Origin: Eledone cirrhosa
Taxonomy: Eukaryota
Reading direction: 5' to 3'
Assembly: GCA_964016885.1 (NCBI GenBank)
Contig: OZ024742.1
Span: 101,556,001-101,620,000 of the forward strand
DNA length: 64,000 nt
Part shown: positions 4,170 to 50,163 of the stretch, one piece after another
How positions within the stretch are numbered: position 1 is the first letter of the stretch
Layout of the letters: every line of letters starts with the position of its first letter
Translations under genes and position numbers: made by a program
Notes under the pieces: model-generated
The model's input: the letters and a program-made list of their open reading frames with translations, nothing else
Database searches by the model: none
Told to the model about the DNA's origin: nothing

Positions 4170-4170
<1 letters not shown>

Positions 4171-4845
4171 CATCATCATCATCATCGTTTAACGTCCATC
4201 TTCCACGCTTGCATGGGTTTGGACGGGAATTTTCCCACTTGAGGCAAGATTGGTTGTCTTGCTCGCATAGGACTGTGGCGGGTTTTCTACAGTTGGGTGC
4301 CCTTCCTAACACCAACCACGTTTACAGTGTGGACTGGGAGGTTTTTACCGTGTTACCTACACGGCCACATTACAGCGTGGACTGTGTGTCTTTTTGTCGT
4401 GACACCTACACGACCTCATTTATTTCGGACTGGATGTTGTGGTACCAACATAACTTTACATTGAAAGGGGTGGTGTGGATGGGGTGCGGGGTAGTGGGAC
4501 GGGAGTGTATTTTTGTTAGAGGTGCCTACTGACTGTAGGTTTCGCTTTGTACTTAGGCAAGGCGGGTCTTCTGTATTACTGTGTAGCGCCGAAGATCTCG
4601 GTCCAGTGACATTGTCTTGGAGAGGTGTAAGTGTGTGAGGTCGGAATTTATCAAGTCGTCCCAGGTTTTTCTGGATCTGCCTACTCCGTGGCTACCGTCT
4701 ATTTTTATTGCCCTGCACTTTTTTATACAGCTGTCGTCTTTCATGCGCATCACGTGACCATACTAACATAGTCTTCTCTCGAGTAAACAACATCTGATCC
4801 CTCTTATTCCTAATTTCACCCTTAGTTCGTTTATGCTTTGCCGTT
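4170..4845 (-). mobile_element. RTE LINE family A, 3' fragment with 3'UTR
   Basis: MMRMKDDSCIKKCRAIK..KTWDDLI, shared 3'UTR and (tga)n tail; near-identical to 29787-30745. Confidence 0.9.
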
Positions 4846-5655
4846 GATATATATATATGTAATTGTGTGTATGTATATGTGCCTGACTGTGTGTATATAT
4901 ATATGTATATATATGTTGACTGTGTGCATATATATATGTATGTGTGTGTATGTGACTGTGTATGAGTGTGCGTATGTATATACGTGTGACTGTGTGCGTA
5001 TATATACACATGCGTGTGACTGTGTGCGTATATATACACATGCGTGTGACTGTGTGTGTATATGTGTGACTGTATATATATGCGTATAACTGTGTGTATA
5101 TATATATATATAGGTGTGTGTGTGACTATGTATATTTATGTGTGTGAATGTGTGTGCATTTGTGTGTATGTATATGTGTGTGACTATGTATATATGTGAG
5201 TGACTATGTATATATGTGTATGACTGTATGTATATATGTGTATGATTGTATGTATATATGTGTATGACTGTATGTATATATGTGTATGACTATGTATATA
5301 TGTGTGACTGTGTATATATGTGTATGACTGTATGTATATATGTGTGTGGCTGTGTATATATGTGTGTGACTGTGTATATATGTGTGTGACTGTGTATATA
5401 TGTGTATGACTGTGTGTATATATGTGTGACTGTATGTATATATGTGTATGACTGTGTGTATATATGTGTATGACTGTGTGTATATATGTGTGTGACTGTG
5501 TGTATATATGTGTGTGACTATGTATATATGTGTGTGACTGTGTATGTATATGTGTGTATGACTATATATATGACTGTCTATATATGTGTGTTACTGTGTG
5601 TATATATGTGTATGACTGTGTGTATATATATGTGTATGACTGTCTATATATGTAT
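4846..5655. repeat. Minisatellite of about 20-22 bp units (tgtgtatatatgtgtgtgac-like)
   Basis: Recurrent tgac anchor inside TG/TA runs. Confidence 0.85.
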
Positions 5656-5829: not shown

Positions 5830-6650
5830 TAATGAAAGGCAGGCTGTATGATGCCTGCATACGAACAGCAATGTTACATGGCAGTGAGACCTGGGCATTG
5901 TGTGCAGAGGATATATGCAGACTGGAGAGGAACGAAGCTTGCATGCTCCGCTGGATGTGTAATAGTAATATACGTGAACAGCAAAGCATAAACGAACTAA
6001 GGGAGAAATTAGGAATAAGAGGGATCGGGTGTTATTTACTCGAAAGAAGACTACGTTGGTACGGTCACGTGATGCGCATGAAAGACGACAGCTGTATAAA
6101 AAAGTGCAGGGCAATAAAAATAGACGGTAACCACGGAGTAGTCAGACCCAGAAAAACCTGGGACGACTTGATAAATTCCGACCTGACACACTTACACCTC
6201 TCCAAGAAAATGTCAGTGGATCGAGATCTTTGGCACTACACAGTAATACAGAAGACCCGCCTTACTTAAGTACAAAGCAAAACCTACAGTCAGTAGGCAC
6301 CTCTAACACAAATACACCCCCGTCCCACTACCCCCACCCCATCCACACCACCCCTTTAAATGTAAAGTTATGTTGGTACCACAACATCCAGTCCAAAACA
6401 AATGAGGTCGTGTAGGTGTCACGACAAACAAACACACAGTCCATGCTGTAATGTGGCCGTGTAGGTAACACGGTAAAAACCTCCCAGTCCACACTGTAAA
6501 CGTGGTTGGTGTTAGGAAGGGCATCCAGCCGTAGAAAACTCGCCAGACAGTCCTATGCGAGCAAGACAACCACTATTGCCTCAAGTGGGAAAATTCCCGT
6601 CCGAACCCATACTAGCGTGGAAGATGGACGTAAAATGATGATGATGATGA
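5830..6650 (+). mobile_element. RTE LINE family A, 3' fragment
   Basis: ORF 5832-6269 (LHGSETW..RRLRWYGHVMRM..RPRKTW), 3'UTR and (atg)n tail. Confidence 0.92.
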
Positions 6651-6651
6651 T

Positions 6652-6698
<47 letters not shown>

Positions 6699-6981: not shown

Positions 6982-10136
<3,155 letters not shown>

Positions 10137-10732
10137 GTTGGTGCTACTGGTAACATGTATCCCAGTACAACCTGATTCATGGTCGGGTCGTTGGCGACTA
10201 AACTGGCAACCCCACCAAGGTTTCTTGGTGAGGAGGGTGACTTTGGACATCCTGCAGGACTAAAAACAAAACCTGTCAAAGGGCAAAGGAGCTCTTAAGA
10301 GTCAATGGCCATCCAAATCACCGGGAGAGATGACCCCTTAGCCTTTGTCAAGGCAGAATTCTAGGAGAAGGAAAACTCTGATATAACACCTGCAACCTTG
10401 ATGGTATCCAATGATGTTGACTTGTTCTTCTTTTTGGTAAATATCATCTTGGTTAAGAGAGTGGGACTGGCTTTGTGCAGTGCCTTTGCTCACTATAAAA
10501 GCTTCACGGCACAGGCATTGCTTTATATCTGGAGATCTCTCTGCACTTGTCCTCACATGGTACCATGGGCCCAGCACTATGTGTCAATAATTGTCACAAG
10601 TGTAGTGTTTGTACTAGAGTTTTCAAGTCGCTGGCTGGCCTAAAAAGTCACACTCATGCAGCGCTTCGGTAGGGGTTCTCCTACATGGATATAAAGTAGT
10701 GGCCGTACTCGAAAACGCGAGTTGGCAGCCAC
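10137..10732. mobile_element. Probable LINE 5'UTR-derived island between TA arrays
   Basis: Non-repetitive, GC-richer island; the left part resembles RTE 5'UTR motifs (tactggtaaca..cccagta, cgactaaactggcaaccc). Confidence 0.4.
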
Positions 10733-13930
<3,198 letters not shown>

Positions 13931-13986
13931 TTGATTTAAAACTGCACTATCAACAAGTGTTTTTTAGCCTTCATATCATGTTCTCC

Positions 13987-14057
13987 TGTTTTATCTGATG
14001 AAAACACAAATATTATTGTTTGATGATGTTTGTTTTTGAAATGCGCATAATAAAATG
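13987..14057 (+). ncRNA. Type I minimal hammerhead ribozyme
   Basis: tgttttat-CTGATGA-(stem II caaatattattg/tgatgatgtttg)-GAAA-tgcgca-TA-ataaaatg; stem I pairs over 8 bp with G.U; stem III is the palindrome ATGCGCAT. Confidence 0.8.
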
Positions 14058-14092
14058 TATGGAACTCCTTTAACCATCTTTTGATCTTATAT

Positions 14093-14110
14093 TATGTATA
14101 TATATATATG

Positions 14111-14199
<89 letters not shown>

Positions 14200-14422
14200 G
14201 TATATATATATATGTATATATATATGTATATGTATATATGTATATATGTATATATGTATATGTATATATATATATATGTATATATATATGTATATATATA
14301 TATATGTATATATATATGTATATATATATGTATATATATATATATATGTATATATATATGTATATATATATGTATATATATATATATGTATATATATATG
14401 TATATATATATATATGTATATA

Positions 14423-14497
<75 letters not shown>

Positions 14498-14498
14498 G

Positions 14499-14547
<49 letters not shown>

Positions 14548-14923
14548 GTATATATATATGTATATATATATGTATATATATATGTATATATATATGTATA
14601 TATATATGTATATATATATATGTATATATATATATATGTATATATATATATGTGTATATATATACATGTATATATATATATGTATATATATATATGTGTA
14701 TATATATACATGTATATATATATATGTATATATATATATGTATATATATATCTATGTATATATATATATGTGTATATATATATATGTGTATATATATATA
14801 TGTGTATATATATATATGTGTATATATATATATGTGTATATATATATGTGTATATGTATATATATACATATATATATATACATATATATATATACATATA
14901 TATATATACATATATATATATAC

Positions 14924-14994
<71 letters not shown>

Positions 14995-15007
14995 CATATA
15001 TATATAC

Positions 15008-15038
<31 letters not shown>

Positions 15039-15057
15039 CATATACATATATATATAC

Positions 15058-15088
<31 letters not shown>

Positions 15089-15089
15089 C

Positions 15090-15143
<54 letters not shown>

Positions 15144-15410
15144 ATACATATATATATACATATATATATATACATATATATATATACATATATATATATA
15201 CATATATATATATATACATATATATATACATATATATATATATATGCATATATATATACGTATATATATATATATGTATATATATATATGTATATATATA
15301 TATGTATATATATATATGTATATATATATATGTATATATATATATGTATATATATATGTATGTATATATATATGTATATATATATGTATATATATGTATA
15401 TATATATATG

Positions 15411-15497
<87 letters not shown>

Positions 15498-15965
15498 GTA
15501 TATATGTATATATATATGTATATATATATATGTATATATATATATGTATATATATATATGTATATATATATGTATATATATATATGTATATATATATATA
15601 TGTATATATATATATGTATATATATGTATATATATATATATGTATATATATATATGTATATATATGTATATATATATATATGTATATATATATGTATATA
15701 TATATATGTATATATATATGTATATATATATATGTATATGTATATATGTATATATGTATATGTATATATGTATATATATATATGTATATATGTATATGTA
15801 TATATATATATGTATATATATATATGTATATATATATACATATATGTATATATATGTATATATATATATATATATGTATATATATGTATATATATATATA
15901 TATATGTATATATATGTATATATATATATGTATATATATATATGTATATATATATATGTATATAT

Positions 15966-16010
<45 letters not shown>

Positions 16011-16022
16011 TGTATATATATG

Positions 16023-16054
<32 letters not shown>

Positions 16055-17525
16055 TGTATATGTATATGTATGTATATATATATATGTATATATATATATG
16101 TATATATATATATGTATATGTATATGTATATATGTATATATGTATATGTATATGTATATATGTATATATATATATATGTATATGTATATATATGTATATG
16201 TATATATATGTATATATATATATGTATATATATATATGTATATATATGTATATGTATATATATGTATATGTATATATGTATATGTATATATATGTATATG
16301 TATATATATGTATATGTATATATATGTATATATATATGTATATGTATATATATGTATATGTATATATATGTATATATATATGTATATATATGTATATGTA
16401 TATATGTATATATATATGTATATGTGTATATATATATGTATATATATATGTATATGTGTATATATATGTGTATATATATATGTATATATATATGTATATG
16501 TATATATATGTATATGTGTATATATATATGTATATGTGTATGTATATATATATGTATGTATATATATATGTATGTATATATATATGTATATGTGTATATA
16601 TATATGTGTATATATATATATGTGTGTATATATATATATGTGTGTATATATATATATATGTGTGTATATATATGTGTGTATATATATATGTGTATATATA
16701 TATATATGTATGTATATATATATGTGTGTATATATATATGTGTGTATATATATATGTGTGTATATATATATGTGTGTATATATATATGTGTGTATATATA
16801 TGTGTGTATATATATATGTGTGTATATATATATGTGTGTATATATATATGTGTGTATATATATATATGTGTGTATATATATATATGTGTGTATATATATA
16901 TATGTGTGTATATATATATGTGTGTATATATATATGTGTATATATATGTGTGTGTATATATATATGTGTGTATATATATGTGTGTATATATATATGTGTG
17001 TATATATATATGTGTGTATATATATATGTGTGTATATATATATGTGTATATATATATGTGTGTATATATATATATGTGTGTATATATATGTGTGTGTATA
17101 TATATATATGTGTGTATATATATATATGTGTGTATATATATATATGTGTGTATATATATATATGTGTATATATATATATATGTGTATATATATATATATG
17201 TGTATATATATATATGTGTATATATATATATGTGTGTATATATATATGTGTGTATATATATATATATGTGTATATATATATATGTGTGTATATATATATG
17301 TGTGTATATATATATATGTGTGTATATATATATATGTGTGTATATATATATATGTGTGTATATATATATATGTGTGTATATATATATATATGTGTGTATA
17401 TATATATATATGTGTGTATATATATATATATGTGTGTATATATATATATATGTGTGTATATATATATATATGTGTGTATATATATATATATGTGTGTATA
17501 TATATATGTGTATATATATATATAT
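14093..17525. repeat. Giant interrupted (TA)n array, about 3.4 kb
   Basis: G-interrupted, with an internal C-interrupted block at about 14865-15260 and a TGTG-rich right end. Confidence 0.96.
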
Positions 17526-18611
17526 GTTGTTATATTTGGGGAGGGTCATATTTGCGTAATATTGCCAGAATTAATAACAGAACACACTCACTGTTTGGTT
17601 GGTTTTCGCTTCTCGCTGTCTTTTATATCTGCGATCTAACTTACTCGGTCCTCAATGTTGCCATTGACTGACCGGCGGTCAAAAATAATACAGATACAAT
17701 ATAGACACAAACACATATATATAGTTTACATAATTTACATAAATCTTTCGTTGCACATCTGCAACATCGTCAGTGGTGTTATATTCATTGTTCCTCCTGT
17801 TGTGTTGTATGTCTACGCCATTTTTTTATTCAGTCTGTCTATATATTTATTTATTTATTTGCTTGTTTGTTTATCTTATTTTATTTTGTCTTCTTTGCGC
17901 ATGTGTTTGTGTGTGTGTATAGTGTTATGTGTGATGTGTGACTAGTGTGTATAGTGTTGTGTCTGCTGGGTGACTAGTGTGTGTTTATGTGCTTGTTGTT
18001 ATTGTGCTTGTGTATGTATTTATTTATCTTATTTTATTTTATTTTATTTACTTATTTATACTTCTCTTAGGTCAGTGTTGTTTGTTTGGGTGTTGTTGTT
18101 GTTGTTCCACTCATTCTTTCTGTTTAGCTTTGGTCTTCTAATTTCTATTTCACTGGCCTCTCTGATTTGCCTATCTGCTGGGTCATTCCTATGTTTAGAT
18201 ATTATTCTAATTTCTATGTTGTCTATGTTACCGTCATGTTGTTGTCTAGCATGTTCGTATAGTACTGACCCGTTTTTTCGTCCTTTTAGTTCCTCCCAGT
18301 GTTGGTCTATCCTTTCACCTATGCTACGAGCTGTCTCACCTATGTATGTTGTTGTCATGTTTCTGCAAGTACCCTCTGTACATCTTATGCTATAGACTAC
18401 GTTTCTAGTTTTACAGTTTATCCGGGGGTTCACCTTACATATGATACATTTCCTATAAAAGACAGATATAAAAGACAGCGAGAAGCGAAAACCAACCAAA
18501 CAGTGAGTGTGTTATGTTATTAATTCTGGCAATATTACGCAAATATGACCCTCCCCAAATATAACAATATCTGTTTCGACACACGATTTCATATAAAAAA
18601 CCTCGCTAAAC
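17526..18611 (-). mobile_element. Penelope-like element 3' fragment (GIY-YIG endonuclease) with inverted pseudo-LTR segment
   Basis: ORF 18056-18499: CKVNPRINCKTRNVVYSIRC..C..YIGETARSIGERIDQH..LYEH..REASEI..PKLN; about 105-bp inverted repeat at 17526-17631 and 18462-18568. Confidence 0.88.
17736..17780 (-). ncRNA. Penelope-type minimal hammerhead motif (stem I weak)
   Basis: Minus strand reads acca-CTGACGA-t-gttgca-gatg-tgcaac-GAAA-gattTA-tg; core and stem II intact, stem I only about 2 bp. Confidence 0.5.
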
Positions 18612-19405: not shown

Positions 19406-19901
19406 TCATCATCATCATCATCGTTTAACGTCCGTGTTCCACGCTTGCATGGGTTTGGACGGGGGTTTTCCCACTTGAGGCAAGAGTGATCGTCTTGCTC
19501 GCATAGGACTGTCTGGCGGGTTTTCTACAGCTGGATGCCCTTCTTAACACCAACCACATTTACAGTGTGGGGCTGGGAGGTTTTTACCGTGTTGCCTACA
19601 CGGCCATATTACAGCGTGGACTGTGTGTTTTTTGACGTGACACCTACACGATCTCATTTGTTTCGGCCTGGATGTTGTGGCACCAACATAACTTTACATT
19701 GAAAGGGGCGGTGTGGATGGGGTGGGGATGGTGGGATGGGGGTGTATTTTGTTAGAGATGCCTACTGACTGTAGTAGGTTTTACTTTGTATTTAGGTAAG
19801 GCGGGTCTTCTCTATTACTGTGTATCGCCAAAGATCTCGGTCCAGTGACATTGTCTTGGAGAGGTGTAAGTGTGTGAGGTCGGAATTTATCAGCTCGTCC
19901 C
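19406..19901 (-). mobile_element. RTE LINE family A, short 3' fragment
   Basis: (cat)n tail, same 3'UTR as 4170-4550, and the end of the ORF. Confidence 0.88.
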
Positions 19902-33118: not shown

Positions 33119-33195
33119 CCCGAGATGCAGATGAAAGAGAAAAGTGGATTAAATCACTTGAAAATACCATATTGCGGCATACCCATTTTGTTAAG
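33119..33195 (+). CDS. OSBPL9: OSBPL9 homologue, next exon (77 nt, phase 1 to 0), end of PH domain
   Basis: Acceptor ctcatttctttacag; (A)[25 protein letters not shown]; donor gtaagg. Joins the 377-455 exon in frame (G+CC=Ala); matches ORP9 [21 protein letters not shown]. Confidence 0.93.
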
Positions 33196-47990: not shown

Positions 47991-48593
47991 TATATTCATT
48001 CATGTATTTACTCATAATTTTATTAAATAAATGTTCAGATGGCAGTAGTCAATGAAATAAGTTGGATCTAGCTACTGAACTGTCTCGTCGATACATCAAT
48101 TACAACGCGACGTTTAACTGAATACATGCATGTCATTCACCTATCTCGTTCACTACATTTCACTCTGTTTTAGTAAATGACACTTGTTGTTATTGTTTTG
48201 TTTTTTTTATTCATTTTCTCCGAAAGTATCGGAATACTTTTTCTCTATATTTCCCCTTTAATAATATTTATTTGCTTAGTTATATCTATCTGTTTAGGCG
48301 GCAAACTCGTAGCATTTGGCAGTTTATCTCATTCATATTGCCACTATTGTGTGTGTATATATGTTTATATAGACACATATATATACATTTATAGTATATA
48401 TATACATACATACATATATATATATACATTTATAATATATATATTATAATATATATATAAGCAAAGCGATATTTAATTTGTTGGTAATTCAACAAATATA
48501 TATATTTATAACTGATTCGAAGCACTCGACAGTTTTCTGGAGTATATTATCAATGATATTAATAAATGGAAACTATATTTATAAAACCATATT

Positions 48594-48654
48594 TATTCTA
48601 TTATATATATTTCAAGGGTACCAAAATTTTGGTACGCTCTCATCAGATAAAATA
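48594..48654 (-). ncRNA. Type I minimal hammerhead, copy A
   Basis: tattttat-CTGATGA-gagcgtaccaaaattttggtaccctt-GAAA-tatata-TA-atagaata. Confidence 0.78.
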
Positions 48655-48752
48655 CAAAGTTTGTTTTATAAAGTTTGTTTTACTATCCAGGTAAAACTTG
48701 AACTGTTAAGATCTCGTTTCTGGATATGTCAATATTTATAAAACAAACTTTG

Positions 48753-48813
48753 TATTTTATCTGATGAGAGTGTACCAAAATTTTGGTACCCTTGAAATAT
48801 ATATGATAGAATC
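48753..48813 (+). ncRNA. Hammerhead copy B (G at cleavage position, probably inactive)
   Basis: tattttat-CTGATGA-gagtgtaccaaaattttggtaccctt-GAAA-tatata-TG-atagaatc. Confidence 0.65.
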
Positions 48814-48819
48814 AATATG

Positions 48820-48861
<42 letters not shown>

Positions 48862-48977
48862 AGCAATGAGTTATTTAATTTGTTGATTATTCAACAAATT
48901 TAGTTTATAACAGATTTGAAGCACTCAATAAGTTTATTAATATTAATAAATGGAAGCTATCTTTATAAAACCATATT

Positions 48978-49038
48978 TATTTTATTATATATATTTCAAG
49001 AGTACCAACATTTTGGTACGCTCTCATCAGATAAAATA
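48978..49038 (-). ncRNA. Type I minimal hammerhead, copy C
   Basis: tattttat-CTGATGA-gagcgtaccaaaatgttggtactctt-GAAA-tatata-TA-ataaaata; perfect 8-bp stem I. Confidence 0.8.
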
Positions 49039-49862
49039 CAAAAGTTGGTTTACAGATAGTGACATATTCAAACTAGAACTTAATGTTGTGAGATCTAAAC
49101 ATTAAGTTCTAGTTTGAATATGGTTTTATAAAGATAGCTTCCATTTATTAATATTATTGATATATATATATATATATATATATATCGCAAATGCATTCGC
49201 ATTCATCAGTTGTTCTGAAAATGAAATTTGTTTTTCATTGTTAATTAGCCTAGTGTAGTTTTGGTGATTCTTTTCAAATAACCGACTATTTCAGCGTTTC
49301 TTTTTTAGTTCTGACTCTTTATTTTTTAAATGCCTCGTACCTCGTGGGGCTCCTCGCCAGAAGTGATGATGGTGTACTGATTGGCACAGTCCCTCTACCA
49401 TCGTCGAAATCGACGGAGGTCCATTCCACCAGTTTCCTCGGAAACGTCTAATCAAAAGAAATCAATGCTAGTTTTGCATGAAACATTGGATTTACAATAT
49501 CGAATAAATATATATTTGCTAGTTTAATGTACAATTTAAAGAGGATTTTTTTTATTTTTTATATAAGATCGCCTTGTAAGGTATGTTTGGTATGTTTAAG
49601 AAAAGATTCATTAAAATGTTCAAGGGCGTTAATATGTAATGAAAACTTATATTTAGCATTGAAGTCGTCAGCTCCATTCTGGTATGGTTTCTATAACTGG
49701 ATGTCTTTCCTACAGCCAACCACTTATAATAATAATGAAATTATTGTGTACAGTGCTCAGGTACACTACAATTCATCTAAGGTGCATGTATAGTACATAG
49801 AATAATGTACAACTGTCAGGAAAGTGAACAGGTATTTACCGAGAAGCTATCTTTATAAAACA

Positions 49863-49923
49863 TATTTTATTATATATATTTCAAGAGTACCAAAATGTTG
49901 GTACGTTCTCATCAGATAAAATA
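49863..49923 (-). ncRNA. Type I minimal hammerhead, copy D
   Basis: tattttat-CTGATGA-gaacgtaccaacattttggtactctt-GAAA-tatata-TA-ataaaata. Confidence 0.75.
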
Positions 49924-50163
49924 TAAAAGTTGGTTTACAGATAGTGACATGTTCAAAGATTCATTAAAATTTTCAAGGGCGTTAATATGTAATGAAAACT
50001 TATATTTAACATTGAAGTCGTCAGCTCCATTCTGGTGCGTGTTATCGTAGTACCGCCATTACTACTTGATACAAATTGTATTTGATAAAATATATTTCTA
50101 AAATAAAATAAAATACTATAACTATCAACCATAATAATTACGTCCCGTATCTGTATATTTATA

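Follow-up and report, generated by a model that had tools for sequence, protein, structure and literature searches.

The 162-bp island at positions 13,931–14,092 of the window (the whole 64,000-nt stretch of Eledone cirrhosa DNA analysed here) is very probably a young solo pLTR of an abundant Penelope-like element with Hydra-type motifs, inserted in an intronic TA repeat and carrying that element's hammerhead, whose full fold is predicted to require a dimer and which is likely to be inactive in the host intron. Read directly from the sequence, the island is a single unit between TA-type arrays, and the features on which the following description relies are these (window positions):

377–455, + strand: host exon before the intron, from a PH-domain gene, in frame with the next exon
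11,261–13,930, no strand assigned: upstream (TA)n-type array of 2,670 bp, the insertion target, read from the sequence
13,930–14,092, + strand: probable solo pLTR without a tail, from a Hydra-type Penelope-like element and spanning −120 to +43 from the predicted cut
13,987–13,994, + strand: hammerhead stem I, 5′ strand, pairing with 14,050–14,057
13,995–14,001, + strand: catalytic core C3–A9, CUGAUGA (CTGATGA in the DNA), from the sequence
14,002–14,037, + strand: stem II, 15 pairs with a C·U mismatch at position 4 and lacking G10.1-C11.1, from the fold and covariation
14,038–14,040, + strand: core G12-A13-A14, from the sequence (GAAA is 14,038–14,041)
14,041–14,048, + strand: palindromic stem III, ATGCGCAT, with pairing predicted between two molecules only
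14,049, + strand: H17 (A) of the AUA triplet, with cleavage predicted 3′ of A14049
14,050–14,057, + strand: stem I, 3′ strand; G14057 is the sole change unseen in close relatives
14,093–17,526, no strand assigned: downstream (TA)n-type array of 3,434 bp, read from the sequence
33,119–33,195, + strand: host exon after the intron, in frame with the preceding exon
48,590–49,925, both strands: four sister-family hammerhead frames with cores at 48,646 (−), 48,761 (+), 49,030 (−) and 49,915 (−) and stem III ATATATAT

The core at 13,995–14,001, GAAA at 14,038–14,041, the palindrome at 14,041–14,048 and a cut predicted after 14,049 are arranged as the initial annotation had laid them out and make up a type I hammerhead (CUGANGA / GAAA / UH, three helices, stem I closing); the cut position is assigned 3′ of H17 by hammerhead numbering. 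Stem I consists of six Watson-Crick and two outer G·U pairs. Stem II, which had been described as G·U-rich, is A-U-rich instead, with 12 Watson-Crick and three G·U pairs among its 15, a single C·U mismatch at the fourth position and a 4-nt loop. The position of the G10.1-C11.1 pair is taken by A-U in the island and is G-C in only four of 87 distinct stem II sequences. A search of the island against Rfam yielded no hammerhead match at E up to 10, the best 150 of the 352 Rfam matches listed for the whole window comprised microsatellite-driven miRNA matches only, and free folding of the whole island was no better than that of shuffles (z 0.30).

In a sample of 20 aligned rows chosen across families, in which related rows inflate the counts and the search pattern partly forced the core and stems I and III, the core is conserved in all 20 except at N7, and in stem II both partners vary between families in eight of the nine pairs tested. 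The covariation score of 0.41 compares with 0.24 in shuffles (0 of 500 reach 0.41) and with at most 0.17 in slid controls, and two counting measures, of pairs and of pair types, do not exceed the shuffles (92 and 107 of 500). Stem I has one-sided changes only and one of the four stem III pairs changes on both sides: of the structural covariation proposed between families, that in stem II is real and that in stem III partial, and stem I is simply conserved. Self-complementarity of stem III is kept in ATATATAT, ATACGTAT and ATGCGCAT, with the third position unpaired in three of the 20 rows, and 85 of the 87 distinct stem II sequences have no pair at the fourth position, where C almost always faces a pyrimidine. 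Because stem II covaries and both the palindromes and the C·Y mismatch are kept, the hammerhead fold is, to judge from these alignments, under selection in the lineage.

Relatives of the island across the 3.0-Gb genome comprise 42 near-full-length matches (88–100%) among 40 scored candidates. The 25-mer that covers GAAA, stem III and the predicted cut matches the genome exactly 21,961 times, the whole hammerhead frame of the island's family occurs 20,217 times, and sister families with the same frame and other stem III sequences contribute another 23,516; each reversed control gave 0. The total of more than 43,000 frames, about one per 70 kb, is high but no record, as the axolotl has 126,247 (PMC7229834). 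The family is also found in independent public sequencing runs. The island's nearest sampled copies differ from it by 1–2 nt, so that it looks intact because it is young, and relatives this close allow no inference of local selection on the copy itself. Substitutions at first taken as private to the island all turned out to be subfamily markers except A14057G. The island is one ordinary copy among about 20,000 young repeats and is not special to its locus. The copies at 48–50 kb, which had been compared with the island as a different family, form a homologous sister family (tail homology over 34 of 45 columns, E 9e-5), whose + strand frame (core at 48,761) has G at position 17. The sister hammerhead families (48,590–49,925 and loci L101–L113) share the frame, the stem II C·Y mismatch and a tail motif, and have tailed and tail-less 3′ ends, like the island's family.

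Of the 25-mer matches on contig C1, the first 100 in the list were taken irrespective of likeness, and the ends of 99 were mapped against one real copy. The 3′ ends fall into two classes: 49 copies stop in a TA-like motif at +39 to +54 and 48 reach the end of the tail (+125 to +131; one of these, with an internal deletion, was classed by eye), which leaves two elsewhere. At the 5′ side, 32 copies end at −119 to −128, 19 between −118 and −20 and two at the edge of the locus, while the 46 longer ones were left uninterpreted where they end beyond −130, these ends being mostly stops against a divergent reference. The family therefore has three recurrent breakpoints (−119 to −128, +39 to +54 and +131), and the edges of the island, at −120 and +43, are both modal breakpoints. 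Genome-wide, the junction of (TA)n with this pLTR start recurs in 462 copies; 15 of 20 such copies inspected by eye have no tail, and 13 are solo and tail-less like the island. Since the modal edges match and these 13 are alike, tail-less solo islands are a routine product, of which the genome probably holds a few hundred.

Copies also occur as 32 head-to-head pairs, of which 27 combine one tailed with one tail-less arm, three have two tails, one has none and one is unscorable; the one-tail rule thus holds in 27 of 31 scorable pairs (p 2e-5) and is broken by four. Between paired arms the median difference is 1 nt (20 pairs), compared with 13 nt between loci, which argues that both arms of a pair derive from one source, although later homogenisation of the inverted repeats could also have made them identical. 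Dimers between different loci are disfavoured as the origin of paired arms, as the arms match each other. Either arm may hold sequence that is absent from its partner, which argues against simple fold-back copying, and the tailed arm shrinks to a few bases at three loci (L043, L058 and L087; 8 nt at L043). Head-to-head junctions at about −124 (L047, L060, L063) often contain a few extra bases around a CATATG palindrome, which resemble untemplated or snap-back additions. Inverted copies and a tail on one side only have been described for Penelope-like elements (PMC8557442), as have an internal promoter and a frame with the repeat at each end (PMC2377424). The literature searched, which included few subscription journals, held no account of this family or of a one-tail-per-pair count; unsearched supplements may hold related sequences.

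Inserted copies rarely start at the predicted cut. TA junctions at this position were found in eight copies, compared with 462 at the pLTR start, the two search patterns differing slightly in length and degeneracy. A search of the first 25.9 Mb of C1 with a motif lying 3′ of the cut gave 56 copies. Of these, 48 also match the upstream 25-mer; of the remaining eight, one starts at the cut, one starts about 10 nt before it and six run on upstream with point changes. On account of this rarity, uncut or religated RNA is the source of the inserted copies. A two-primer model of insertion can be inferred from the ends and pairs, in which the nuclease of the element would open (TA)n and each of the two DNA ends would prime reverse transcription on RNA from a single source element, the first at the tail end and the second at the internal TA-like motif 43–54 nt after the hammerhead, after which the two arms would be joined head to head. 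Where the tailed arm is very short or absent, the result would be a tail-less solo pLTR between TA arrays, such as the island. Selection on the hammerhead fold would act on master elements and not on the island copy. All three breakpoints sit in TA-like motifs, where priming, nuclease cutting and microhomology joining are indistinguishable, and the latter two explain the breakpoints as well as priming does. A further reading would have the fold kept as a pairing handle instead of for cutting an RNA end, with the stem III palindrome holding two pLTR copies from a single source together while both (TA)n ends are primed, to give a one-tailed, head-to-head insertion. Copies rarely start at the cut (1 of 56; 8 versus 462), yet the fold and its C·Y mismatch are kept, and we regard this role as conceivable but improbable.

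The element is present as a full copy at locus L031, which contains a partial pLTR in inverted orientation, an open frame of 799 aa, roughly 0.9 kb of non-coding sequence on its 3′ side and a tailed pLTR of the island's kind; the unit measures about 3.6 kb and its tail 88 nt. The frame encodes a reverse transcriptase (RT) with a YRDD motif and a C-terminal nuclease-like region, the nuclease being read by motif, in keeping with the single frame for RT and a GIY-YIG-type nuclease of Penelope-like EN+ elements. The element has the hammerhead pLTR, partial tandems, inverted 5′ copy and one-sided tail of Penelope-like EN+ elements. Pfam gave no match for the element protein or for two homologues, a profile search found nothing among solved structures, and a homologue set carries PF26215. 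Motifs given for the Hydra clade are RWK, DKT rather than DKG, CxCx5C, CxxC and CxH (PMC8557442, section 11), and the element protein and seven of the 12 homologues found contain RW(K/I), D/NKT, CxCx5C, CxxC and CxH. The RW motif reads RLRWI in L031 and RWKA in five of the seven homologues; NKT is present in L031 and DKT in the copy at L032; the element protein has the CxCx5C linker, with CxxC and CxH near its end, and has neither GxK/R-F/Y nor CX2-5CxxC. Judged by eye, the nuclease core has no conserved cysteine pair in the homologue alignment, which contains no CCHH-bearing reference. Nearly all 3′ ends of the sampled copies adjoin TA repeats, and a (TA)n target is listed for all six new Hydra families and nearly all Repbase ones, each of them hammerhead-bearing and an Octopus bimaculoides family among them (PMC8557442). 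The parent element thus has Hydra-clade motifs, and its assignment to this clade is by motif. The Naiad clade, a first guess from a cysteine motif, was ruled out, as the nuclease is C-terminal and not N-terminal and a hammerhead is present. The protein (L031:1882–4278; L032:2139–4361, with the frame open in both) includes about 60 additional low-complexity residues ahead of the cysteine linker, which are missing from the seven homologues.

With Hydra-clade C-terminal EN+ elements such as Hydra-1_Obim (PMC8557442), the element shares a single frame for RT and C-terminal nuclease, the RW, DKT, CxCx5C, CxxC and CxH motifs, a hammerhead near the 3′ end, the (TA)n target, the inverted 5′ copy and a tail on one end. 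All three hammerhead stems of Hydra-1_Obim differ from those of the island, and because of this difference from the listed motif the element is a family other than Hydra-1_Obim; stem III starts with AC in all Hydra motifs listed there, whereas that of the island starts with AU. The published elements are also shorter than 3 kb with tails of 30–40 bp, compared with about 3.6 kb and 88 nt here (PMC8557442). The minimal, palindromic-stem-III hammerheads of metazoan pLTRs (PMC4209133) resemble the island's in their type I topology, short stem I, long stem II and small palindromic stem III, and in occurring as thousands of mostly single copies, with opposite-strand pairs 100–700 bp apart. The island differs from them in lacking G10.1-C11.1 and any obvious bulged base after A9, and in that all families sampled here keep a C·Y mismatch at the fourth stem II pair.

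The island is on the sense strand of an intron of 32,663 bp (456–33,118) between two in-frame + strand exons, which agrees with the sense-strand placement in a 32.7-kb intron first described. An upstream exon on the same strand, 15 kb before the window, has a Pfam PH match just under the cut-off (E 4e-5) and also matches the PH domains of PLEKHA3 and of oxysterol-binding protein-related protein 11. The two short host exons gave nothing significant in searches, no match to the oxysterol-binding domain PF01237 was found near the window among 36 candidates, and no oxysterol-binding motif turned up in the 160 kb downstream. The host, which had been named as OSBPL9, is thus a PH-domain gene on the + strand, with no oxysterol-binding domain located nearby; we presume it to be OSBPL9-like.

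The two arrays flanking the island had been given as 3-kb (TA)n arrays; TA arrays do flank it, with lengths of 2,670 and 3,434 bp, and are imperfect, at 78–84% TA dinucleotide. Both belong to one 10.5-kb array that holds another island. This array (6,982–17,526) is strand-skewed, with G and almost no C on the + strand and a GC skew near 1.0 over several kilobases, and includes a run of 18–20-nt units with GA at 10,815–11,260. Its second island (10,137–10,732) is a 596-bp repeat without a long frame, with near-full-length copies at 96–97% in four other loci (L015, L114, L144, L147). At 17,527–18,611, also in TA repeats, there is another Penelope-like fragment with a nuclease-like frame on the − strand (18,511–18,059) and inverted terminal pieces, 94–96% like copies in L050 and L070. 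Inverted copies of a repeat with 49-nt tandem units lie on either side of a TG/TA microsatellite, at 4,170–4,863 and 5,832–6,654; similar starts at 19,406 and 61,261 suggest that this repeat is another TA-targeting retroelement.

The initial annotation had proposed that the motif could cut OSBPL9 pre-mRNA. That it does so often enough to affect expression, alone or with element RNA in trans, we consider very unlikely, despite the sense orientation, a complete core, stems I and II that can form, a strong palindrome duplex, some 20,000 family copies that could supply partners, and a reported depletion of retrozymes in Xenopus introns (bioRxiv 10.64898/2026.07.22.740005). In the predicted island monomer, the pair probability is 0.00 for stem III, only about 0.45 for stem I and about 0.33 for inner stem II. 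Stem III does not close within one molecule, where closing costs 2.9 kcal/mol, and the predicted self-duplex of its palindrome is at −10.5 kcal/mol. The full hammerhead fold is thus predicted to need a dimer, as in known pLTR motifs. Only one second family copy occurs in the 264 kb scanned, and it is antisense, leaving no sense partner; the other sense frame in the window has a different palindrome and G17. The island further lacks the G10.1-C11.1 pair that is typical of canonical hammerheads, and in the experiments described in PMC4209133 cleavage was undetectable for single minimal hammerheads and low for dimers (dimer cleavage is also reported by Lunse et al., as cited in PMC6765202). Axolotl monomers with a short helix III were cleaved to 6–22% in an hour (PMC7229834), by analogy with which low-level cleavage of the monomer is possible, and the intact stems I and II and the strong self-duplex would also make cleavage with a partner RNA in trans possible. 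Given the predicted dimer-only stem III and the lack of a matching sense copy within 264 kb, cutting of the host pre-mRNA by this young copy, unremarkable among its relatives, is nevertheless unlikely. Conserved intronic ribozymes (amniote hammerheads and the CPEB3 HDV-like ribozyme; PMC6765202) likewise have a sense-strand motif in an intron, but those are conserved single loci, whereas the island is a young repeat whose stem III is predicted to be unable to close alone. As paired insertions leave both strands with a frame, the genome probably tolerates sense frames in introns by the thousand.

The annotation of a remnant of a TA-targeting "Penelope/retrozyme" stands in its first half, in view of the pLTR, the RT-nuclease parent and the TA ends, and fails in its second, as the island is single and part of a coding element. 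A monomer of a non-autonomous, retrozyme-like unit moving by itself as a 162-nt RNA would account for fixed ends that recur and for the fact that about 13 of 20 TA-joined copies equal the solo unit, and would suit the size (170–400 nt) and pLTR derivation of retrozymes (PMC7229834; bioRxiv 10.64898/2026.07.22.740005). Non-LTR retrozymes (PMC7229834; bioRxiv 10.64898/2026.07.22.740005) share with the island a short non-coding unit, a type I hammerhead and kinship with pLTRs, but they are tandem and cut at the hammerhead, whereas the island is not tandem, ends off the cut site and is a piece of a coding element. Both breakpoints also occur in arms that continue into the coding body, and with 462 TA-joined starts versus about 20,000 frames solo units make up only a small minority, which makes independent movement of the island highly improbable. 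The missing Rfam hammerhead match and the folding z of 0.30 would be expected if the motif were a chance match or an assembly artefact within a long TA array; such arrays are hard to assemble, and no contig confirmed this very site together with the flanking sequence. The copies of the motif run to tens of thousands against 0 in the controls, its covariation score is 0.41 against at most 0.17 for slid controls, and the family is present in independent public runs; these results refute the chance reading for the motif and leave this explanation a negligible probability.

The island is very probably a young solo pLTR, likely inert in its host, and the copy itself, as one of about 20,000, matters little. 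PMC8557442 describes as unclear both what the hammerhead does in Penelope-like elements and how their one-sided tail arises. This family is a modest test bed for both questions: it is young and abundant, its reading frame is open, its breakpoints fall at three sharply defined sites, and its A-U-rich hammerhead variant covaries.
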